Positions 33,931 to 42,523 of a stretch of DNA of 64,000 bases are shown here, piece by piece. The position numbers and the translations under genes were made by a program. This DNA comes from a virus (lineage: Duplodnaviria > Caudoviricetes): positions 32,001-96,000 of the IMG/VR virus record IMGVR_UViG_3300015606_001334. One strand, written 5' to 3'. The notes below the pieces were generated by a model that saw only the letters and a list, made by a program, of their open reading frames with translations, was not told the origin of the DNA and made no database searches. Each line of letters starts with the position of its first letter. The first letter of the stretch is position 1.

Positions 33931-34617
33931 TTACCAAAGTAAATCAAAGTTTCCTGCGAGGACCTTTGACGTCAAATGCTTCTTTCCTGTCTGATGATCT
34001 TGAACCACGTCATCTTGGAAACGATACGTTCTGATCTTATCTCCTCTCATTCCTGAACCAACTTGACCTTTACGATCAGCCATTGTGATTGAGTAATGCT
34101 CACTTTGGGCTGATGAGTCCAATCTCTTGTTGAGTTGGCTCATTGCTTCAGCTAAGGAGTTTTCACGGCTTCTACATTGGGCGGTCTCTACCAATCCTGT
34201 AGGAAGATGGGTAATTCTTGCTGAGTTCTGGTGCTTATTACGGTGTTGTCCACCGGCTCCAGTACCAGAGTACCATTCAATTTTGAAGTCTGATTCAGAC
34301 CGTTTGTGGAATTTCTCAGAACTCTTGTCGTTGCAATCAATGACTGCGACAGTTACGGTTGAGGTATGAACTCGACCTTTACGTTCTGTTGGTGGAACTC
34401 TCTGGATTCGATGTCCACCTGATTCATTTTTGAGTTGGTTGAAGAACTCTTTGCTACACTCTATTTCTAGAGTTGTTACGCCGGGTACCTCAACCTTTTT
34501 AGGATTGAGTCAACCGACGCGATTAAGGAACTTAGAGTAAGCTTGAGCAAGGTCCTTAACGAACAACTTGCTATCGTCACCGCCTTCAGCGGCTCTAATT
34601 TCGATCTTAATACGCAT
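33931..34617 (-). CDS. class I peptide chain release factor, RF1-like, lacking domain 1, with in-frame TGA at codon 36
   Basis: SD TAAGGAG; MRIKIEIRAAEGGDDSKLF...NRVG*LNP...ESGGHRIQRVPPTERKGRVHTSTVTV...GAGGQHRNK..SARITHLPTG...KIRTY; 229 codons in one frame. Confidence 0.85.
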
Positions 34618-34627
34618 GATTTTCTCC

Positions 34628-35236
34628 TTAAAACGTATTTAGTTTATCAAAGCTATCTGCAAACATTTCTAAGCAGATTAAGTTACTACCTTTTGGCTGA
34701 CCTGGTAATGAGTTATCGTACATTCCATAGAAATCATCAAGTTGTTCTATCAAAAATCCTGTAAAACTCTGGCCATCAAAAAACTTGGAAAGATCAAATT
34801 TAAATTTCTCTTTCGACCTAATGTTGAATCCTGCAATGTCATCCTTAAATCGAGGGTCGGCAACGATAGACCTTATGAAGTTTTGTCCATCTTTAAATAC
34901 CGCTCCACCAACGAAGACTGACTTCTTCATTGACATCTTAAACCAGTACAAGAAAATTTTTGCGATCTTTTGGTTTCTAAATTTTGGAGTAATTAAAATT
35001 TTCTCTAACGAAAGAATTTCGTCAACTTCTTTAAACTGCAAGAACCCCACAAATTCATCATCGATTGTAAACATTCCAACATTTGTCTTATCCGCTAGTA
35101 GAAGCTTAAATTTATTTCCTTCGATTTCTTGAATGAGCTTCCCATTAGATCGAAAATATTCTTCCACACCATCAAGTTCTTTTTGTGAATGATTTATTTC
35201 TGTATCAACTTTTAGGGCGAGCTCAGTTAGCTTCAT
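34628..35236 (-). CDS. GNAT-like protein
   Basis: 'ILITPKFRNQKIA' resembles acetyl-CoA-binding motif A. Confidence 0.5.
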   Translation of the reverse strand: MKLTELALKVDTEINHSQKELDGVEEYFRSNGKLIQEIEGNKFKLLLADKTNVGMFTIDDEFVGFLQFKEVDEILSLEKILITPKFRNQKIAKIFLYWFKMSMKKSVFVGGAVFKDGQNFIRSIVADPRFKDDIAGFNIRSKEKFKFDLSKFFDGQSFTGFLIEQLDDFYGMYDNSLPGQPKGSNLICLEMFADSFDKLNTF

Positions 35237-35637
35237 TTCTTGCTTCCTTCGAACCTGTTCAGATCGTACAAAGACGGTGAATGACCATGCTTGTCGACGT
35301 AAGGCATTATATCATCCAGAGAGAACTCTGAAACTGATACGTAGCCGTGCTGCTTTACTGGATCGAGTGTTACATCGTAGTAGGTGTCACCCTCTTTAAT
35401 CCAGGCGTGTTCAATCGGAATGCTATGAAGGAACACATATCCTAAGACGTACTTAGAATCCGGGTGTCCTGTCAGTGCTTTGAAGGCATTGTTGAAGCAT
35501 TGCTTCTTCTGAGCACCAGCCATCTTCTTGAACTTTACTTCTACTTCTTTTGGGTCGGTCTTGACGTGACGAATACCTTGTGTCACCATCTTGACCATAC
35601 CCAATTGATCATTCTCAAGTAGCTCGCTGGTTTTCAT
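35233..35637 (-). CDS. hypothetical protein (Cys-His, transglutaminase-like?)
   Basis: CFNNA...IEHAW...YDVT. Confidence 0.5.
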   Translation of the reverse strand: MKTSELLENDQLGMVKMVTQGIRHVKTDPKEVEVKFKKMAGAQKKQCFNNAFKALTGHPDSKYVLGYVFLHSIPIEHAWIKEGDTYYDVTLDPVKQHGYVSVSEFSLDDIMPYVDKHGHSPSLYDLNRFEGSKK

Positions 35638-37467: not shown

Positions 37468-37542
37468 TGGAGACCGTAGAGGGAATCGAACCCTCGTTAT
37501 CGGATTTGCAATCCGGTGCACTAACCACTCTGCCATACGGTC
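37468..37542 (-). tRNA. tRNA-Cys(GCA)
   Basis: Cloverleaf, TTGCAAA loop, U73-CCA. Confidence 0.95.
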
Positions 37543-37585
37543 TGGCGTTCTTATTTAGAATCAACCAAATAGGAACAAAATTTAT

Positions 37586-37692
37586 TGGATAGCTTTATGA
37601 AGCTAATACGGTGCTTGAATCCGCGGTAACCCTACTCTTCCTGGGCCTTCATGACATCTGCCGGCTAGCATGTCACTCTTATCGGTTATCCA
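37586..37692 (-). ncRNA. candidate Y-RNA-like structured RNA
   Basis: Closing stem TGGATA/TATCCA; internal TGACAT/ATGTCA and TGAAG/CTTCA helices; T-loop-like GCGG-ATTCAAGCA-CCGT. Confidence 0.4.
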
Positions 37693-37710
37693 GTGTAGTT
37701 ACTATTAGCT

Positions 37711-37784
37711 TGGCAAGGGTGGAAGGTAATGCTCCTTCTTCCTCTGGTTCAAAGCCAGATACTTTACTTTTAAGCTACACCCCA
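37711..37784 (-). tRNA. tRNA-Gln(TTG), atypical D- and T-loops
   Basis: Anticodon loop CTTTGAA; D-loop lacks GG; T-loop AGCATTA; CCA. Confidence 0.8.
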
Positions 37785-37793
37785 ATTGTTCGC

Positions 37794-37920
37794 GGAGTTT
37801 TTGCAATCCTCATAGTTCGATAAGCTCAGAGGAAGACTGTAAATTCGTAAACCCAAACTCCCTAAGGCTTGTCGATCAATCATTCCGGCTTATCGTCCAG
37901 AACAAAGGACCTATACGAAT
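37794..37920 (-). ncRNA. candidate structured ncRNA with kissing loops
   Basis: Multiple complementary segments (see findings). Confidence 0.45.
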
Positions 37921-37974
37921 ATTCGACGGAATTATTTTTCGGTTCAATGCGCATTGACCGAGTTTGGTTCCGCC

Positions 37975-38051
37975 TGGTCTCGCTGGTAGGATTCGAACCT
38001 ACGAAATCCTGTTCCCAAAACAGGTGGTATAGACCACTAACCGACAGCGAG
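37975..38051 (-). tRNA. tRNA-Pro(TGG)
   Basis: Cloverleaf, TTTGGGA loop, CCA. Confidence 0.92.
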
Positions 38052-38086
38052 ATATTTTGCCATCTTTCGACAGCAAATTGTAAAAC

Positions 38087-38383
38087 TTAGCCTTCGAGAC
38101 CTAGCTCGTCGACATAAACTTCATCATTTTCTTTGTGGAAGATCTGATGAGTGTTGCGCTGATCATTGAGAATTGTTTCTCCTCTTCCACTCATTTCGAT
38201 CGAAATCACTTCACCAGTAAATTCGATGATTTCAGCAAATTGAGAAGCGTTTTCAACGTACTCGTATGCTTGCTTTGGATCATTGAAAACACGGTAAGTT
38301 GGACCATCGCCATCGTTGTTGATGCCAAGATAACGCTTACCAGCTGATTCGCTGATCTTGATCATTTCTTGTAGAAATTTCAT
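38087..38383 (-). CDS. hypothetical late protein
   Basis: True start MKFLQEMIKISES after TATAAATA; the ORF-track extension runs through tRNA-Arg. Confidence 0.7.
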   Translation of the reverse strand: MKFLQEMIKISESAGKRYLGINNDGDGPTYRVFNDPKQAYEYVENASQFAEIIEFTGEVISIEMSGRGETILNDQRNTHQIFHKENDEVYVDELGLEG

Positions 38384-38415
38384 TTTGGAACCTTTCAGAA
38401 AAAGGTATTTATATT

Positions 38416-38493
38416 TGGCGCCCTCGGAGAGATTCGAACTCCCGACTTCTTGTTTCGAAGACAAGCACTCTAGTCCAACTGAGTTACGAAGGC
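38416..38493 (-). tRNA. tRNA-Arg(TCG)
   Basis: Cloverleaf, CTTCGAA loop, CCA. Confidence 0.92.
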
Positions 38494-39014
38494 ATGTTTA
38501 ATATTTCATCAGTCATATGTCGCGAGATAAATCTTTTGACTTGAGTATGACTAATTCCTAATTCTTTACTACATCGAGTAACCCAACCCCAGCCAGTAGC
38601 AGAGTGCCTTCTTACTGCATCCTTATAGGAGTTTAGTTTCTCTTTTGAATATTGTCTACCAGCAGATGGTTTGCCCTTTCTTCTAGAAGCTATCATCTCC
38701 TTTGCCTTCTCTTCACCGTATTTCATTTTCATACGGTCGTTGAATGACAAGTACGTTCCAGCTTCTTTTTGATCGAGGTGATTATCTGTTGGAGTTCCCC
38801 AATACAAATGATTGGGGTTACTGCACTTTTCATTATTGCATGCATGACACAAATAAATTTTTGATCCTCTAGGGATTGTTGTATCTAAGAAATCAGCTAG
38901 TAATCCCCTGAATTCTTTTGAGTAACCTCCTCGTTCGATACAATTTTCTTCTAGACTGAGATGGGAACGTCTTTCTTCTCTACTTAGATTGATGTACTCA
39001 TTTATGTCTTGCAT
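38484..39014 (-). CDS. HNH-type homing endonuclease
   Basis: LCHACNNEKCSNPNHLYWGTPTDN plus C-terminal HTH-like segment; free-standing inside tRNA array. Confidence 0.8.
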   Translation of the reverse strand: MQDINEYINLSREERRSHLSLEENCIERGGYSKEFRGLLADFLDTTIPRGSKIYLCHACNNEKCSNPNHLYWGTPTDNHLDQKEAGTYLSFNDRMKMKYGEEKAKEMIASRRKGKPSAGRQYSKEKLNSYKDAVRRHSATGWGWVTRCSKELGISHTQVKRFISRHMTDEILNMPS

Positions 39015-39061
39015 TTTGAACCTTTAACTAAGAATGTATTTCCTATTTATAGGTTCAGATT

Positions 39062-39139
39062 TGGCACCGCTAGGGGGACTTGAACCCCACCCCTCGAGAG
39101 TGACAGTCTCGCATGCTCAACCATTAACACTATAGCGGT
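39062..39139 (-). tRNA. tRNA-Asp(GTC)
   Basis: Cloverleaf, CTGTCAC loop, G73-CCA. Confidence 0.92.
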
Positions 39140-39229
39140 GTAGAGGAACGTTTTAGGCCTTTCAAACGTTCAGAGAATATTTAGCCGGACCTGACTTGCA
39201 GGTAAACCTTCCCTTGACTGATTTCAGGC

Positions 39230-39550
39230 TCAGTGAACCTTAATTTTCGGCAAGGCCGCAATAAGCGCCTTTTTCAAATTCTTGTATTTCGGCTTATCAG
39301 ACATGAGTTGAATCACTTCGTCAAGATCAACACCGTGTTCTGATAGATGTTTTCTGAAATTGCTACGACGATTGTACTCACTAGCCTGTTTTACACAAGC
39401 ATAGCATTGAGTGCGGTTCTTAAGACGAACTGCGCCACAAGTAATGCATAGATCCTGTGCTTTCCGGAAAGCACGAAGTTTACGATTGCTTACTGCTTGC
39501 GGAGTATCGGAGTTTTTGCCTTCTGAACGAAGATCTTGAGTTTCAGCCAT
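39230..39550 (-). CDS. zinc-ribbon hypothetical protein
   Basis: CxxC...CxxC; early promoter at 39579-39608. Confidence 0.65.
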   Translation of the reverse strand: MAETQDLRSEGKNSDTPQAVSNRKLRAFRKAQDLCITCGAVRLKNRTQCYACVKQASEYNRRSNFRKHLSEHGVDLDEVIQLMSDKPKYKNLKKALIAALPKIKVH

Positions 39551-39613
39551 TTTGTTCTTCTCGCTTTGAAAAAGTTAAATTATAACTTCAAAACGAGAAG
39601 ATGTAAACTGTTT

Positions 39614-40015
39614 TTATATCTTGAAATACTGGAATTCTACATAAGACTCAATTTCAGGAGGTTCCTTCAACATGATTTGAGTCTCAGTGATTTCAACATA
39701 AGCTTGTCTTGGTAGTTTTCGTCCATTGACAAAAACGAGGACTGAGTCAGTATGCATCACGTATGGAACATCAAGAGTAAACATCTGTTTGTCTTTGACA
39801 TCAATGTAAAATTCTTGACAGATCATTTTCCAAGCTGGCAGATCACCTAATGCTTTGTTCCAAATACCGTTTGCTTGAATGTAAAGTCCCTTCTTAACAG
39901 GATCCTTGCAATAAATGATTTGACCTTCTTCGAAGATGCCGTACTCAGGAACTTCATCATAGACTGGAATCTTAACCAGGTTTCTGATGACCTCTTCATT
40001 CGCATAAACTCTCAT
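39614..40015 (-). CDS. hypothetical late/structural protein
   Basis: VLVFVNGRKL motif; ATAAATA upstream. Confidence 0.65.
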   Translation of the reverse strand: MRVYANEEVIRNLVKIPVYDEVPEYGIFEEGQIIYCKDPVKKGLYIQANGIWNKALGDLPAWKMICQEFYIDVKDKQMFTLDVPYVMHTDSVLVFVNGRKLPRQAYVEITETQIMLKEPPEIESYVEFQYFKI

Positions 40016-40055
40016 TTGTTTCTTCCTTATAGTTATGGATGAGATATTTATTGAT

Positions 40056-40129
40056 TGGCAGAGCGTGAGGGAATCGAACCCCCATCTGCGGACTTGGAAA
40101 CCGTTATGTTACCACTACACCAACGCTCT
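40056..40129 (-). tRNA. tRNA-Trp(CCA) with destabilised anticodon stem
   Basis: AGAGCGT TG GTGT AGTGGTA ACAT A ACGGT TTCCAAG TCCGC AGAT GGGGG TTCGATT CCCTC ACGCTCT G CCA. Confidence 0.88.
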
Positions 40130-40135
40130 ATATTT

Positions 40136-40210
40136 TGGTACTCCATACGGGATTTGAACCCGTCCGCCTACCTTGAAAGGGTAGTGACCTAACCGCTAGT
40201 CTAATGGAGT
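40136..40210 (-). tRNA. tRNA-Glu(TTC)
   Basis: Cloverleaf, CTTTCAA loop, CCA. Confidence 0.92.
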
Positions 40211-40213
40211 ATA

Positions 40214-40285
40214 TGGCCCGCGGAAGAGGAGTCGAACCTCCAAGGCCAAGATTCGTAGTCTTAGCTCCATCCATTTGGCCCGCGG
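40214..40285 (-). tRNA. tRNA-Arg(ACG), reduced D-arm
   Basis: CTACGAA loop, canonical T-arm, CCA; short D region without U8. Confidence 0.75.
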
Positions 40286-40293
40286 ATTTTTGT

Positions 40294-40371
40294 TGGGGCG
40301 ATCGACGGGACTTGAACCCGCAAGTACCTGATTCACAGTCAGGTGTGTCTACCAATTCCACCACGATCGCC
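40294..40371 (-). tRNA. tRNA-His(GTG)
   Basis: G-1:C73 pair, CTGTGAA loop, CCA. Confidence 0.95.
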
Positions 40372-40388
40372 ATAGTGAAAAATAAATC

Positions 40389-40475
40389 TGGCTAGGGAGG
40401 AAGGAGTCGAACCTTCACAAAGGCTTGCGCCGACAGAGTCAAAGTCTGTTGCTCTACCAGTTAAGCTACTCCCCA
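40389..40475 (-). tRNA. tRNA-Gln(TTG) with long variable arm
   Basis: CTTTGAC loop; variable hairpin GGC-GCAA-GCC; CCA. Confidence 0.88.
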
Positions 40476-40481
40476 ATTATT

Positions 40482-40585
40482 TGGCGGCGGATCAATTAAC
40501 CCAAACCTAGTCTAACCAACCGGCCGATTGGACTCGTCTATTGTGAGGGAAATTAGAAGAAGCTAGCATTCTAACTTAACCCGCC
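40482..40585 (-). ncRNA. CCA-terminated non-tRNA stable RNA candidate
   Basis: GGCGGGTTAA / TTGATCCGCC terminal stem + GCCA; starts directly after tRNA-Phe CCA. Confidence 0.55.
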
Positions 40586-40660
40586 TGGTGCCAGCGATTG
40601 GTAACGATCCAACCTCTCAAGATTTTCAGTCTCGCGCTAATCCATCTCAGCTACACTGGC
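40586..40660 (-). tRNA. tRNA-Phe(GAA), T-loop ATCGTTA
   Basis: CTGAAAA loop, CCA. Confidence 0.88.
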
Positions 40661-40669
40661 ATTAAAATT

Positions 40670-40745
40670 TGGTGCACCCAGTCGGAATCGAACCGACGCT
40701 ACCATGCTCTTCAGGCATGTGCTCTACCAACTGAGCTACAGGTGC
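40670..40745 (-). tRNA. tRNA-Phe(GAA), G37
   Basis: CTGAAGA loop, canonical arms, CCA. Confidence 0.92.
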
Positions 40746-40750
40746 ATATT

Positions 40751-40826
40751 TGGCACTGCGTACGGGTTTCGATCCCGTTGCCTCTACCGTGACAGGGTAG
40801 CGCTCTCCCAATTGAGCTAACGCAGT
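40751..40826 (-). tRNA. tRNA-Asp(GTC)
   Basis: CTGTCAC loop, T-loop ATCGAAA, G73-CCA. Confidence 0.92.
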
Positions 40827-40833
40827 ATTGATT

Positions 40834-40917
40834 TGGTACAGCGTGGGGGAATCGAACCCCAGCCCGAAGGCGGTACCTTGAAAGGGTACTGACCGTTACC
40901 AGCAGTCGACACGCTGT
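40834..40917 (-). tRNA. tRNA with TTC (Glu) anticodon, 8/4 fold and variable hairpin
   Basis: ACAGCGTG/CACGCTGT 8-bp acceptor, 4-bp T-stem, GCC-TTCG-GGC V-arm. Confidence 0.8.
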
Positions 40918-40934
40918 ATTAAAGATTGCTTAGG

Positions 40935-41009
40935 TCGGAGTGAGAGGATTTGAACCTCCGTCCTCCTCCTTCCAAGGGAGGCCGTCTACCAGGCTGACAT
41001 TACACTCCG
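40935..41009 (-). tRNA. tRNA-Pro(TGG), no encoded CCA, A37
   Basis: CTTGGAA loop; ends CCG-A-CCT; flanked by 12-bp inverted repeat. Confidence 0.88.
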
Positions 41010-41030
41010 CCTAAGCAATCTCTTTACTTC

Positions 41031-41438
41031 TTAAACTTCTTTGATTCTTCGAGCTAAGCTTCGATAACCATATCCAGCAGGGTGGATCTTGTCCTGGCTT
41101 AATTCTTGAACCTTTATCTCAATAGTCTTATCACCGTTTTTACTGGCGAGTTCCTCAACTATCTTTCTCTGTACAGGCTTGATACTCTTGCTTGGTAAAA
41201 TCCAAACAACCTGACCTGTAATGGAGCTTCTCAGCTTTTCTAGTGCTTCAAGAGTTTTGATCTGTTTGGTATCGTTTGTCCCAAGGCTGATAATCGTCAT
41301 TGGCAACTTCATGTTGAAGTCATGACGTTTAACGAAATCCTCAGAATTTATACCAGACTTTGCGTTTGCTTTGCATTCATGCATTACATTCGAAAGACCA
41401 TAAGCAATTGAGTCACCAATAATTAAACATTCAAGCAT
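41031..41438 (-). CDS. SGNH/GDSL hydrolase
   Basis: IIGDSIA, SG, LGTND, DKIHP blocks. Confidence 0.8.
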   Translation of the reverse strand: MLECLIIGDSIAYGLSNVMHECKANAKSGINSEDFVKRHDFNMKLPMTIISLGTNDTKQIKTLEALEKLRSSITGQVVWILPSKSIKPVQRKIVEELASKNGDKTIEIKVQELSQDKIHPAGYGYRSLARRIKEV

Positions 41439-41461
41439 ATTTTCCTTTTCAGTTTAAGTAA

Positions 41462-41536
41462 TGGTGGTGATGGCGGGAGTCGAACCCACTTGGTACTCCT
41501 TATGAGGGAGGCGCATAACCGTTCTGCCACATCACC
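41462..41536 (-). tRNA. tRNA(CAT): elongator Met or Ile2
   Basis: CTCATAA loop, G1-C72, CCA. Confidence 0.88.
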
Positions 41537-41586: not shown

Positions 41587-41624
41587 AAAACAATTAAGGG
41601 AAACCAATTTCTTGATTTCCCTTA
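41587..41624 (-). terminator. attenuator terminator hairpin
   Basis: UAAGGGAAAUCAA-GAAA-UUGGUUUCCCUUA followed by AUUGUUUU. Confidence 0.8.
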
Positions 41625-41684
41625 GTATTTTTACTTCTTAGAGATTTGTTACTTAAGCGTAACCATCTCCTTCAATACTAAGGG
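41619..41684 (-). promoter_or_regulatory. antiterminator hairpin overlapping terminator 5' arm
   Basis: CCCUUAGUAUU (41684-41674) pairs with AAUACUAAGGG (41629-41619); inner GAGAU/AUCUC and GUUAC/GUAAC helices with leader stop in the loop. Confidence 0.75.
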
Positions 41685-41796
41685 CCTTACAAGGTTCATC
41701 ATCATGCATAAACTCTGGGCGGCGATCGCACTGCTCAGTGCGCTGCCACTGGCAGAAATCCTGATCAAATTGTTGTGCGAAAGTTGCGAAGTTCAT
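41653..41796 (-). CDS. tRNA-array leader (attenuator) peptide, 47 aa
   Basis: MNFATFAQQFDQDFCQWQRTEQCDRRPEFMHDDEPCKALSIEGDGYA*; AAGGA SD 12 nt upstream. Confidence 0.8.
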   Translation of the reverse strand: MNFATFAQQFDQDFCQWQRTEQCDRRPEFMHDDEPCKALSIEGDGYA

Positions 41797-41896
41797 GATG
41801 TTGCTAAGTCCTTGTAAAAAGTTAATGTTGCATATTACTATATATTAGATTCGGCAGAATTTTTGTTTTTCTGCTGTTATCCAACCGTTAGATGAA

Positions 41897-42523
41897 TTAT
41901 ATCATTTCTACCGGATTTGTAAACAGTTTTGTTGAAAAAAGTTGAAGCATCAGAGAGTTGAACCTGATCCAAAACACCGACTCCACTGGGTAGGCCGTAT
42001 GTTTGAAGTACCGTACTGCTTCAACATGTAGAGAATTATAAATCGTTTTTCTGAAGTTGTAAACTGTTTTCAATAATTTTTTAATGATGTTGTTGATACC
42101 ACCAAATGAAATCATCGATTTGCGCCCTGAAGATTTCCAAACATCCACCCAACCTGGAGGATATGGAAGCACAAATTCTCCTGCAGTGTATGCAGTCGTC
42201 ATCATTTCTAGAACTATGCTGGCTGCGTCAATTTTGGCAACGCTATGTTTGGTGTACAAATCCGACAGTTTATGTTCAAGTTTGAATTCTTTGCGCAACA
42301 GATTGGCAATAATTGTAGCACCAGCCCTGGCAAACATGTCATCGTCTGTCATTCCAAGATGGTAACCACGATGGGATGCCCAAGCCCTTCTAACTGAGCG
42401 AGTTCGCTCTAACAAACTCTGTGTTTCATCAGTCTTTTTATTGATGCGCTTTAAGGCTTTGTATTCTTTCGTGTTCTTGAACGCTGTCGAGATCAGAAGT
42501 TCTTGTGTGGTCAAAGTGCTCAT
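41897..42523 (-). CDS. hypothetical protein
   Basis: ORF track, start reassigned to MSTLTT. Confidence 0.6.
   Translation of the reverse strand: MSTLTTQELLISTAFKNTKEYKALKRINKKTDETQSLLERTRSVRRAWASHRGYHLGMTDDDMFARAGATIIANLLRKEFKLEHKLSDLYTKHSVAKIDAASIVLEMMTTAYTAGEFVLPYPPGWVDVWKSSGRKSMISFGGINNIIKKLLKTVYNFRKTIYNSLHVEAVRYFKHTAYPVESVFWIRFNSLMLQLFSTKLFTNPVEMI

Follow-up and report, generated by a model that had tools for sequence, protein, structure and literature searches.

An array-borne phage tRNA-Trp with an unusual anticodon arm and its relation to a UGA-interrupted release factor gene

Can a tRNA-Trp with the ordinary CCA anticodon serve as a dedicated reader of UGA? The question is raised by a phage genome in which a tRNA-Trp(CCA) whose anticodon stem is poorly paired is encoded in a tRNA array upstream of a gene for an RF1-like release factor that is itself interrupted by an in-frame TGA. 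The original prediction held that this tRNA bears several hallmarks of UGA read-through and may supply the read-through on which the release factor gene depends. The window considered here, i.e. the whole stretch of DNA that was analysed, comprises 64,000 nucleotides (bases 32001-96000) of an IMG/VR phage record that is 359,550 bp long and was judged complete. DNA comparison with GenBank phages recovered no close cultured relative, and every match of the release factor protein in GenBank phages fell below 40% identity. The phage and its relatives are seen in sequencing runs of wastewater metagenomes from several studies; one metatranscriptome run has contigs of relatives that extend over the tRNA-Trp and over the release factor gene's 5' end, and contigs of this kind are no evidence of expression, ends or read-through for either gene.

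The gated release factor gene and the tRNA array upstream

The RF1-like gene, which is preceded by a strong Shine-Dalgarno sequence and begins 3 kb downstream of the tRNA array (Table 1), encodes a protein without domain 1 in which the PxT (PPT) and GGQ motifs are present. Between its internal TGA and a point beyond the GGQ motif the gene has no in-frame ATG, GTG or TTG, and the TGA occupies the position of a conserved tryptophan of RF1; hence, a full-length RF1-like protein is possible only if UGA is read as tryptophan. The codon (hereafter the gate) is TGA in 78 of the 78 related viral loci where it could be located, and its flanking codons vary synonymously, which implies that the stop is programmed. 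With the conserved tryptophan position, the 78 loci and the missing restart all in agreement, the claim that this gene requires UGA read-through is upheld. The base that follows the gate (site 34507-34512 in the window and the same site in L003-L082) is A in 43, G in 20, C in five and T in none of 68 distinct genes; of the genome's 118 ordinary TGA stops, 39 have T as the next base. Contigs of a relative from a wastewater metatranscriptome run and a DNA run connect 34629 to 35264 (region 34628-35264), with 26 other bases in place of a 202-codon ORF upstream of the release factor gene, suggesting that this ORF is dispensable.

The phage genome otherwise uses the standard code. Genome-wide recoding was rejected, as ORFs of at least 100 aa called with table 11 cover 91% of the genome and loci carrying the tRNA-Trp subtype described below show no gain specific to TGA. 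TGA terminates 118 of the 343 long ORFs (34%) and TAG 14, and with a third of the long ORFs ending in this manner a strong UGA suppressor would be costly. A crude same-frame screen of the genome returned no other convincing gene with an in-frame TGA or TAG, the release factor gene being far ahead; two further candidates were discarded because their translations are low-complexity antisense noise. The tRNA complement of 44-45 genes and one tmRNA is a near-full set with a single tRNA-Trp by ARAGORN, which calls no tRNA(UCA); nor does the genome encode a TrpRS. Outside the window, at G000:C1:119950-120023, this TAG-poor genome also encodes a tRNA with the anticodon CUA (an amber reader), with which the RF1-like factor would compete at UAG.

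The array itself encodes, in order, tRNAs for Met, Pro, Glu, Asp, Phe, Phe, Gln, His, Glu, Trp, Asp, Arg, Pro and Cys. An additional stretch at 37714-37784 on the minus strand matches the Rfam tRNA model with 47 bits and has no ARAGORN call. Most of the leader ORF in the region upstream of the array codes for Phe, Gln, Asp, Cys, Trp, Arg, Glu, Pro, His and Met, all of them amino acids of the downstream array. The promoter-like site, the leader ORF and the terminator-like hairpin together would fit the idea of an attenuator controlling the array.

Table 1. Positions in the window of the tRNA-Trp, the release factor gene and associated elements
Feature	Position	Strand	Basis
tRNA-Trp(CCA), 74 nt, CCA encoded	40056-40129	-	ARAGORN; Rfam RF00005; six-sequence pair count
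Anticodon arm, positions 27-43	40088-40104	-	sequence and ARAGORN bracket
Anticodon CCA	40095-40097	-	sequence
RF1-like release factor gene, 228 codons	33931-34617	-	Pfam RF-1 and PCRF; NCBIfam prfA best match; PDB RF1 alignments
In-frame TGA, codon 36, next base C	34510-34512	-	at conserved Trp of RF1 (PDB alignments)
tRNA array, 14 genes (ARAGORN) and interspersed small ORFs	37468-41536	-	ARAGORN, Rfam
Putative upstream control region of array	41595-41923	-	seen in sequence
Promoter-like TTTACA-16-TATAAT	41896-41923	-	sequence
47-codon leader ORF, one UGG	41653-41796	-	sequence
Terminator-like 13-bp hairpin, directly before first tRNA	41595-41624	-	sequence

The anticodon arm of the tRNA-Trp

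The tRNA-Trp is recovered by the Rfam tRNA model RF00005 with 56 bits (E 6.5e-10). Its anticodon arm, bracketed by ARAGORN as.(((.ccAAAcc.)))., opens with an A27.C43 mismatch and closes on a U31.U39 mismatch, leaving the three G:C pairs C28:G42, G29:C41 and G30:C40 beneath a loop of U32 U33 C34 C35 A36 A37 G38. The D stem consists of G10:U25, U11:A24, G12:C23 and U13:A22, and position 9 is a G. All the structural features on which the prediction was built, namely the two mismatches, the three remaining pairs, G38 and U11:A24, are therefore confirmed by the sequence and the ARAGORN bracket. The acceptor end (A1:U72, G73 and the encoded CCA) fits a bacterial-type tRNA-Trp, and G73 is found in 24 of 24 aligned family members. 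Anticodon CCA, G73 and A1:U72 make up the identity set for E. coli TrpRS, and all three are present; the tRNA would thus be charged by the host TrpRS and decode UGG during infection.

Within its own genome this arm stands apart. Among the 44 tRNAs the tRNA-Trp is the sole regular case with two anticodon-stem mismatches, G38 is unique to it, and A38 is retained in all others that have A36 and A37; at least two anticodon-stem mismatches occur in just six of 790 other tRNAs from related arrays. The arm alone has a folding energy of only -1.3 kcal/mol and the minimum-free-energy fold of the whole tRNA is not a cloverleaf, as might be expected of a decaying or non-decoding tRNA-like gene; the latter property is, however, common for tRNAs and is no argument against function. 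We regard decay as very improbable, since the nucleotides of the tertiary interactions (U8, A14, G18 G19, A21, U33, G53 T54 T55 C56, A58 and C61) are all intact alongside the TrpRS identity elements, two of the stems show compensatory changes among relatives (see below), and no other tRNA-Trp is encoded in this genome, whose tRNA set is near-full. By these sequence features the tRNA is very probably functional.

As to what it might decode, the anticodon is CCA and not the UCA of an opal suppressor. The motif A36-A37-A38 is necessary for isopentenylation of A37 (i6A37) by MiaA, and tRNA-Trp without i6A37 is less efficient and shows reduced near-cognate misreading (PMC5699536). With A36 A37 G38 this motif is broken, so that i6A37 should be prevented and G38 should work against the reading of UGA. 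Its proposal as a hallmark of read-through is accordingly not borne out: G38 removes the i6A37 determinant and is no established mark of this kind.

Two of the remaining features have a better pedigree, as A24 and an unpaired 27:43 have each been linked to UGA reading by tRNA-Trp(CCA), and the C27A change alone raises UGA read-through by E. coli tRNA-Trp about 2.5-fold in vivo (PMC13092985). They are the core of a reading in which the loosened arm and A24 were tuned to raise UGA reading, such that expression of the array opens the gate of the release factor gene. This is conceivable, though we consider it unlikely. It draws on the requirement of the gate for tryptophan at a conserved position across all 78 loci, on the status of the tRNA as the only tRNA-Trp of a phage lacking a tRNA(UCA), and on the precedents of an unpaired 27:43 raising UGA reading in E. 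coli and Blastocrithidia and of G24A as the Hirsh suppressor (PMC13092985). Against it stand the predicted loss of i6A37, with its lowering of near-cognate misreading, the use of TGA as the stop of a third of the long ORFs, and the comparisons described below.

tRNA-Trp genes of gate-bearing phages and of control genomes

We compared 29 distinct tRNA-Trp(CCA) genes, taken from gate-bearing records either close to the gate or at other places, with an unselected control sample of 94 viral tRNA-Trp. Among the former 27:43 is unpaired in nine and paired in 20, and about two thirds have ordinary 5-bp stems; both G38 and the 3-bp stem with its two open ends are confined to the lineage of the window. 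The expected co-occurrence of this tRNA type with UGA-interrupted release factor genes thus fails, as the gate is universal and most of the accompanying tRNA-Trp are paired at 27:43, a result that argues against tuning for read-through. U11:A24 is present in 20 of the first 25 tRNA-Trp of gate-bearing phages, and in the controls, where 27:43 is unpaired in 12 and 31:39 in five, it is again the majority state with about 54. The resemblance to the Hirsh UGA suppressor (E. coli tRNA-Trp G24A), which shares U11:A24 and the CCA anticodon, is for this reason no sign of suppression: unlike in the Hirsh tRNA, A24 here is native and simply the commonest state of viral tRNA-Trp, and it has to be dropped as a hallmark of read-through.

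The open 27:43 pair fares differently. Its frequency in gate-bearing phages amounts to a roughly threefold excess over the viral controls (9/29 versus 12/94, p=0.044) and also exceeds that in other tRNAs of the same arrays (97/790, p=0.008); with lineages collapsed the excess drops to p=0.13. In the same arrays other isoacceptors are equally loose at this pair (20 of 39 for Lys), and in one related clade U43 is fixed and position 27 opposite it has drifted among A, G, C and U. As a mark of UGA reading, the unpaired 27:43 therefore retains its published link and the threefold excess, but not significance across independent lineages.

Complete genomes offer a further comparison, in which an atypical decoder of Trp codons is found in three of six gate-bearing phages and in none of six control phages without a release factor gene, all six of which have a paired 27:43; this difference would favor tuned read-through, but the numbers are too small for weight. 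In a 350-kb complete relative the best tRNA-Trp(CCA) (L225:1501-1602; G001:C1:4837-4938) has C27.U43 and, between C35 and A36, an inserted 28-nt hairpin with a 10-bp stem; there is a second Trp-like gene at about L218:1472-1545, degenerate and with its D arm collapsed. In a 524-kb complete gate-bearing relative, which appears to be standard-coded in the 20 kb looked at, the best match to the tRNA-Trp model is a Trp-like tRNA(UCA) (L224:1501-1577; G002:C1:190515-190591) with G73 and a Trp-like anticodon arm containing C27.A43; the best-scoring and pattern matches in this genome included no CCA tRNA-Trp. This tRNA(UCA) with its open 27:43 is a further point in favor of a tuned decoder.

The share of TGA among stops is the same at gate-bearing loci with a mismatched tRNA-Trp (0.28) and at those with a paired one (0.27), which speaks against the mismatch raising UGA reading. 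TGA use is thus not depleted where the phage tRNA-Trp is loosened, and this would sit well with the converse reading, that the arm raises accuracy through the absence of ms2i6A37 and weaker A-site binding, thereby sparing the many TGA stops of the phage (118 of 343 long ORFs). The loss of the i6A37 determinant through G38, with the attendant reduction in near-cognate misreading (PMC5699536), points the same way. Nevertheless, in E. coli the open 27:43 and A24 have the opposite effect (PMC13092985), and a gain in accuracy leaves unexplained why such tRNAs ride in arrays, so that we consider this reading improbable.

A recurrent accessory subtype of tRNA-Trp

A degenerate search uncovered five more tRNAs with the arm of the window's tRNA-Trp (at L003, L333, L346, L258 and L267). 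In these six, pairing of the acceptor and T stems is complete (100%), and eight of their pairs changed on both sides; the acceptor stems differ at five of seven pairs, whereas no base varies from position 28 to 42 and all six have U.U at 31:39. The 27:43 position is A27.C43 in three (the window, L003 and L333) and A27:U43 in the other three. A wider search added seven viral members in which U31.U39, U32 and G38 are kept and 27:43 is paired, with both 27:43 and 28:42 covarying, bringing the phage and metagenome copies to 13 distinct sequences with covarying stems. We define the subtype by the loop and flanks U-UUCCAAG-U together with a covarying upper stem, acceptor stem and T stem, all of which the window's tRNA-Trp displays. 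A27.C43 is in this comparison confined to the window's lineage, as a mild mismatch added there. Relative to the canonical tRNA-Trp at L019, the one at L267 has identical acceptor and T stems; the differences lie at positions 27, 32, 38 and 39 and have the look of a coordinated switch. In the pattern scan of metagenomes most matches were due to chance and four were new true tRNAs; matches to 'TTCCAAG' in relatives proved to be tRNA-Gly(UCC) and not tRNA-Trp.

The subtype is also found in bacterial assemblies, where a pattern tighter than the first, chance-dominated one recovered 23 copies in Myxococcota, Actinomycetota, Hyphomicrobiaceae, Sphingobacterium and others. All but two of these (21/23) reside in arrays of 3-25 tRNA genes, and a canonical tRNA-Trp with a CUCCAAA loop and a 5-bp stem is additionally present in the four bacterial genomes checked (4/4). 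Arrays of Myxococcota (L611, L635, L649 and other bacterial loci) contain odd-loop tRNA-Trp, sometimes in two copies, and an 8-bp acceptor stem or a shortened D arm is seen in several copies. Furthermore, the subtype occurs in two near-complete jumbo phage genomes (411 kb, 98% complete; 427 kb, 100% complete) in which no release factor homolog was detected by a search that did find a release factor with one TGA in one control record. TGA recoding was seen at none of the subtype loci.

The persistence of an invariant arm amid paired and covarying acceptor and T stems implies that the subtype is maintained by selection, and its distribution in phages and bacterial assemblies marks it as an accessory, array-borne form of tRNA-Trp. 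Its presence in jumbo phages without a release factor gene and in bacterial arrays shows its independence from the gated release factor, a further strike against tuned read-through. The same invariance bears on a neutral explanation, namely that relaxed constraint on accessory tRNAs has let mismatches accumulate that have no function of their own. Such looseness is certainly available: an anticodon-stem mismatch occurs in 172 (22%) of the 790 other tRNAs of related arrays, 4-bp stems are present in 8.9% of bacterial tRNA-Trp (PMC13092985), position 27 is free to vary in the clade noted above, and A27.C43 is a single step from the A27:U43 of its three sister tRNAs. However, drift would not maintain three coordinated changes, U31.U39, U32 and G38, in all 13 phage or metagenome and 23 bacterial-assembly tRNAs as their other stems covary, and neutral looseness thus suits A27.C43 only; for the arm as a whole we find it rather improbable.

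Based on these observations we propose, at about even odds, that the window's gene is a functional tRNA-Trp of a recurrent accessory subtype and no dedicated suppressor. The subtype keeps the anticodon and the TrpRS identity elements and, next to the anticodon, departs at positions 32, 38 and 39 from housekeeping tRNA-Trp, the most likely rationale being that it may no longer be treated as a host tRNA by host enzymes that target the anticodon loop, among them anticodon nucleases and enzymes of MiaA-type modification. We infer this escape motive from a general pattern proposed for phage tRNAs, whose anticodon-loop changes are thought to evade host tRNases (van den Berg et al. 2023, PMC10264068). 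There too the anticodon is kept and the loop flanks differ from the bacterial consensus, although that study treats neither tRNA-Trp nor the 31:39 pair; the likeness extends to the variant being specific to accessory, array-borne copies.

Under the proposed accessory-subtype reading, the tRNA would probably help at the gate in the manner of any tRNA-Trp, by shifting the balance between Trp-tRNA and host RF2 towards the former, with A24 and the open 27:43 perhaps giving modest extra read-through. The idea that this tRNA supplies the read-through of the gate thus stands insofar as it is the only tRNA-Trp of a phage whose gate needs tryptophan, and is weakened by the occurrence of its subtype without a release factor and in bacterial arrays. 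The excess of unpaired 27:43, the tRNA(UCA) of the 524-kb relative and the effect of C27A in E. coli leave room for a tuned role, which is possible and unproven; the comparisons do not show a tRNA-Trp specialized for the UGA of the release factor gene.

Several known systems help to place this locus. Blastocrithidia, Condylostoma, Ca. Zinderia and other bacteria possess tRNA-Trp(CCA) whose anticodon stems have 4 bp (Kachale et al. 2023; Fakih et al. 2026, PMC13092985), which share the anticodon and the unpaired 27:43 with the phage tRNA; there the open top pair raises UGA reading. In contrast to their 4-bp stem and 7-nt loop, 31:39 is also open here, leaving three pairs and an effective 9-nt loop; U32, G38 and A24 are present, whereas that class is delimited as being without A9C and G24A; and the phage uses TGA as an ordinary stop. 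The phages recoded at TGA carry a code-change module of tRNA(UCA), RF1 and TrpRS (Borges et al., 10.1101/2021.08.26.457843), and like them this phage encodes an RF1 and needs UGA as Trp, but with the standard code, one gated gene by the crude screen, a CCA anticodon and no TrpRS; the 524-kb relative, with its Trp-like tRNA(UCA), comes nearer to that module. The autoregulatory in-frame UGA of prfB (RF2) likewise makes the synthesis of a release factor depend on what happens at an in-frame UGA early in its gene; here, however, the gate calls for in-frame read-through at a Trp position instead of a +1 frameshift, and the RF1-like factor cannot itself read UGA.

Work from 2023-2026 established that unpairing one anticodon-stem pair of tRNA-Trp can change the meaning of a stop codon, and was concerned with the top pair and with cellular genomes only; 267 bottom-unpinned bacterial tRNA-Trp were set aside unstudied and phages went unmentioned (PMC13092985). 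What is added here is a conserved bottom-unpaired variant with U32 and G38 that travels with phage and bacterial tRNA arrays, in bacteria as a second copy beside a normal tRNA-Trp and in this phage near a release factor gene that needs UGA as Trp. A corollary is that A24 and single stem mismatches should not count as hallmarks of read-through in phage tRNA-Trp. A tentative and less probable possibility is that the U31.U39/U32/G38 arm defines a distinct mobile class of functional tRNA-Trp that behaves differently on the ribosome or with host enzymes, which might read UGA as Trp at a useful rate or resist a tRNA-Trp-specific defence nuclease, and which, with A27.C43 added, this phage might employ to open its release factor gate and so couple expression of the array to changed termination. 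Whichever explanation holds, the variant provides a natural scaffold for how the anticodon arm tunes near-cognate reading.
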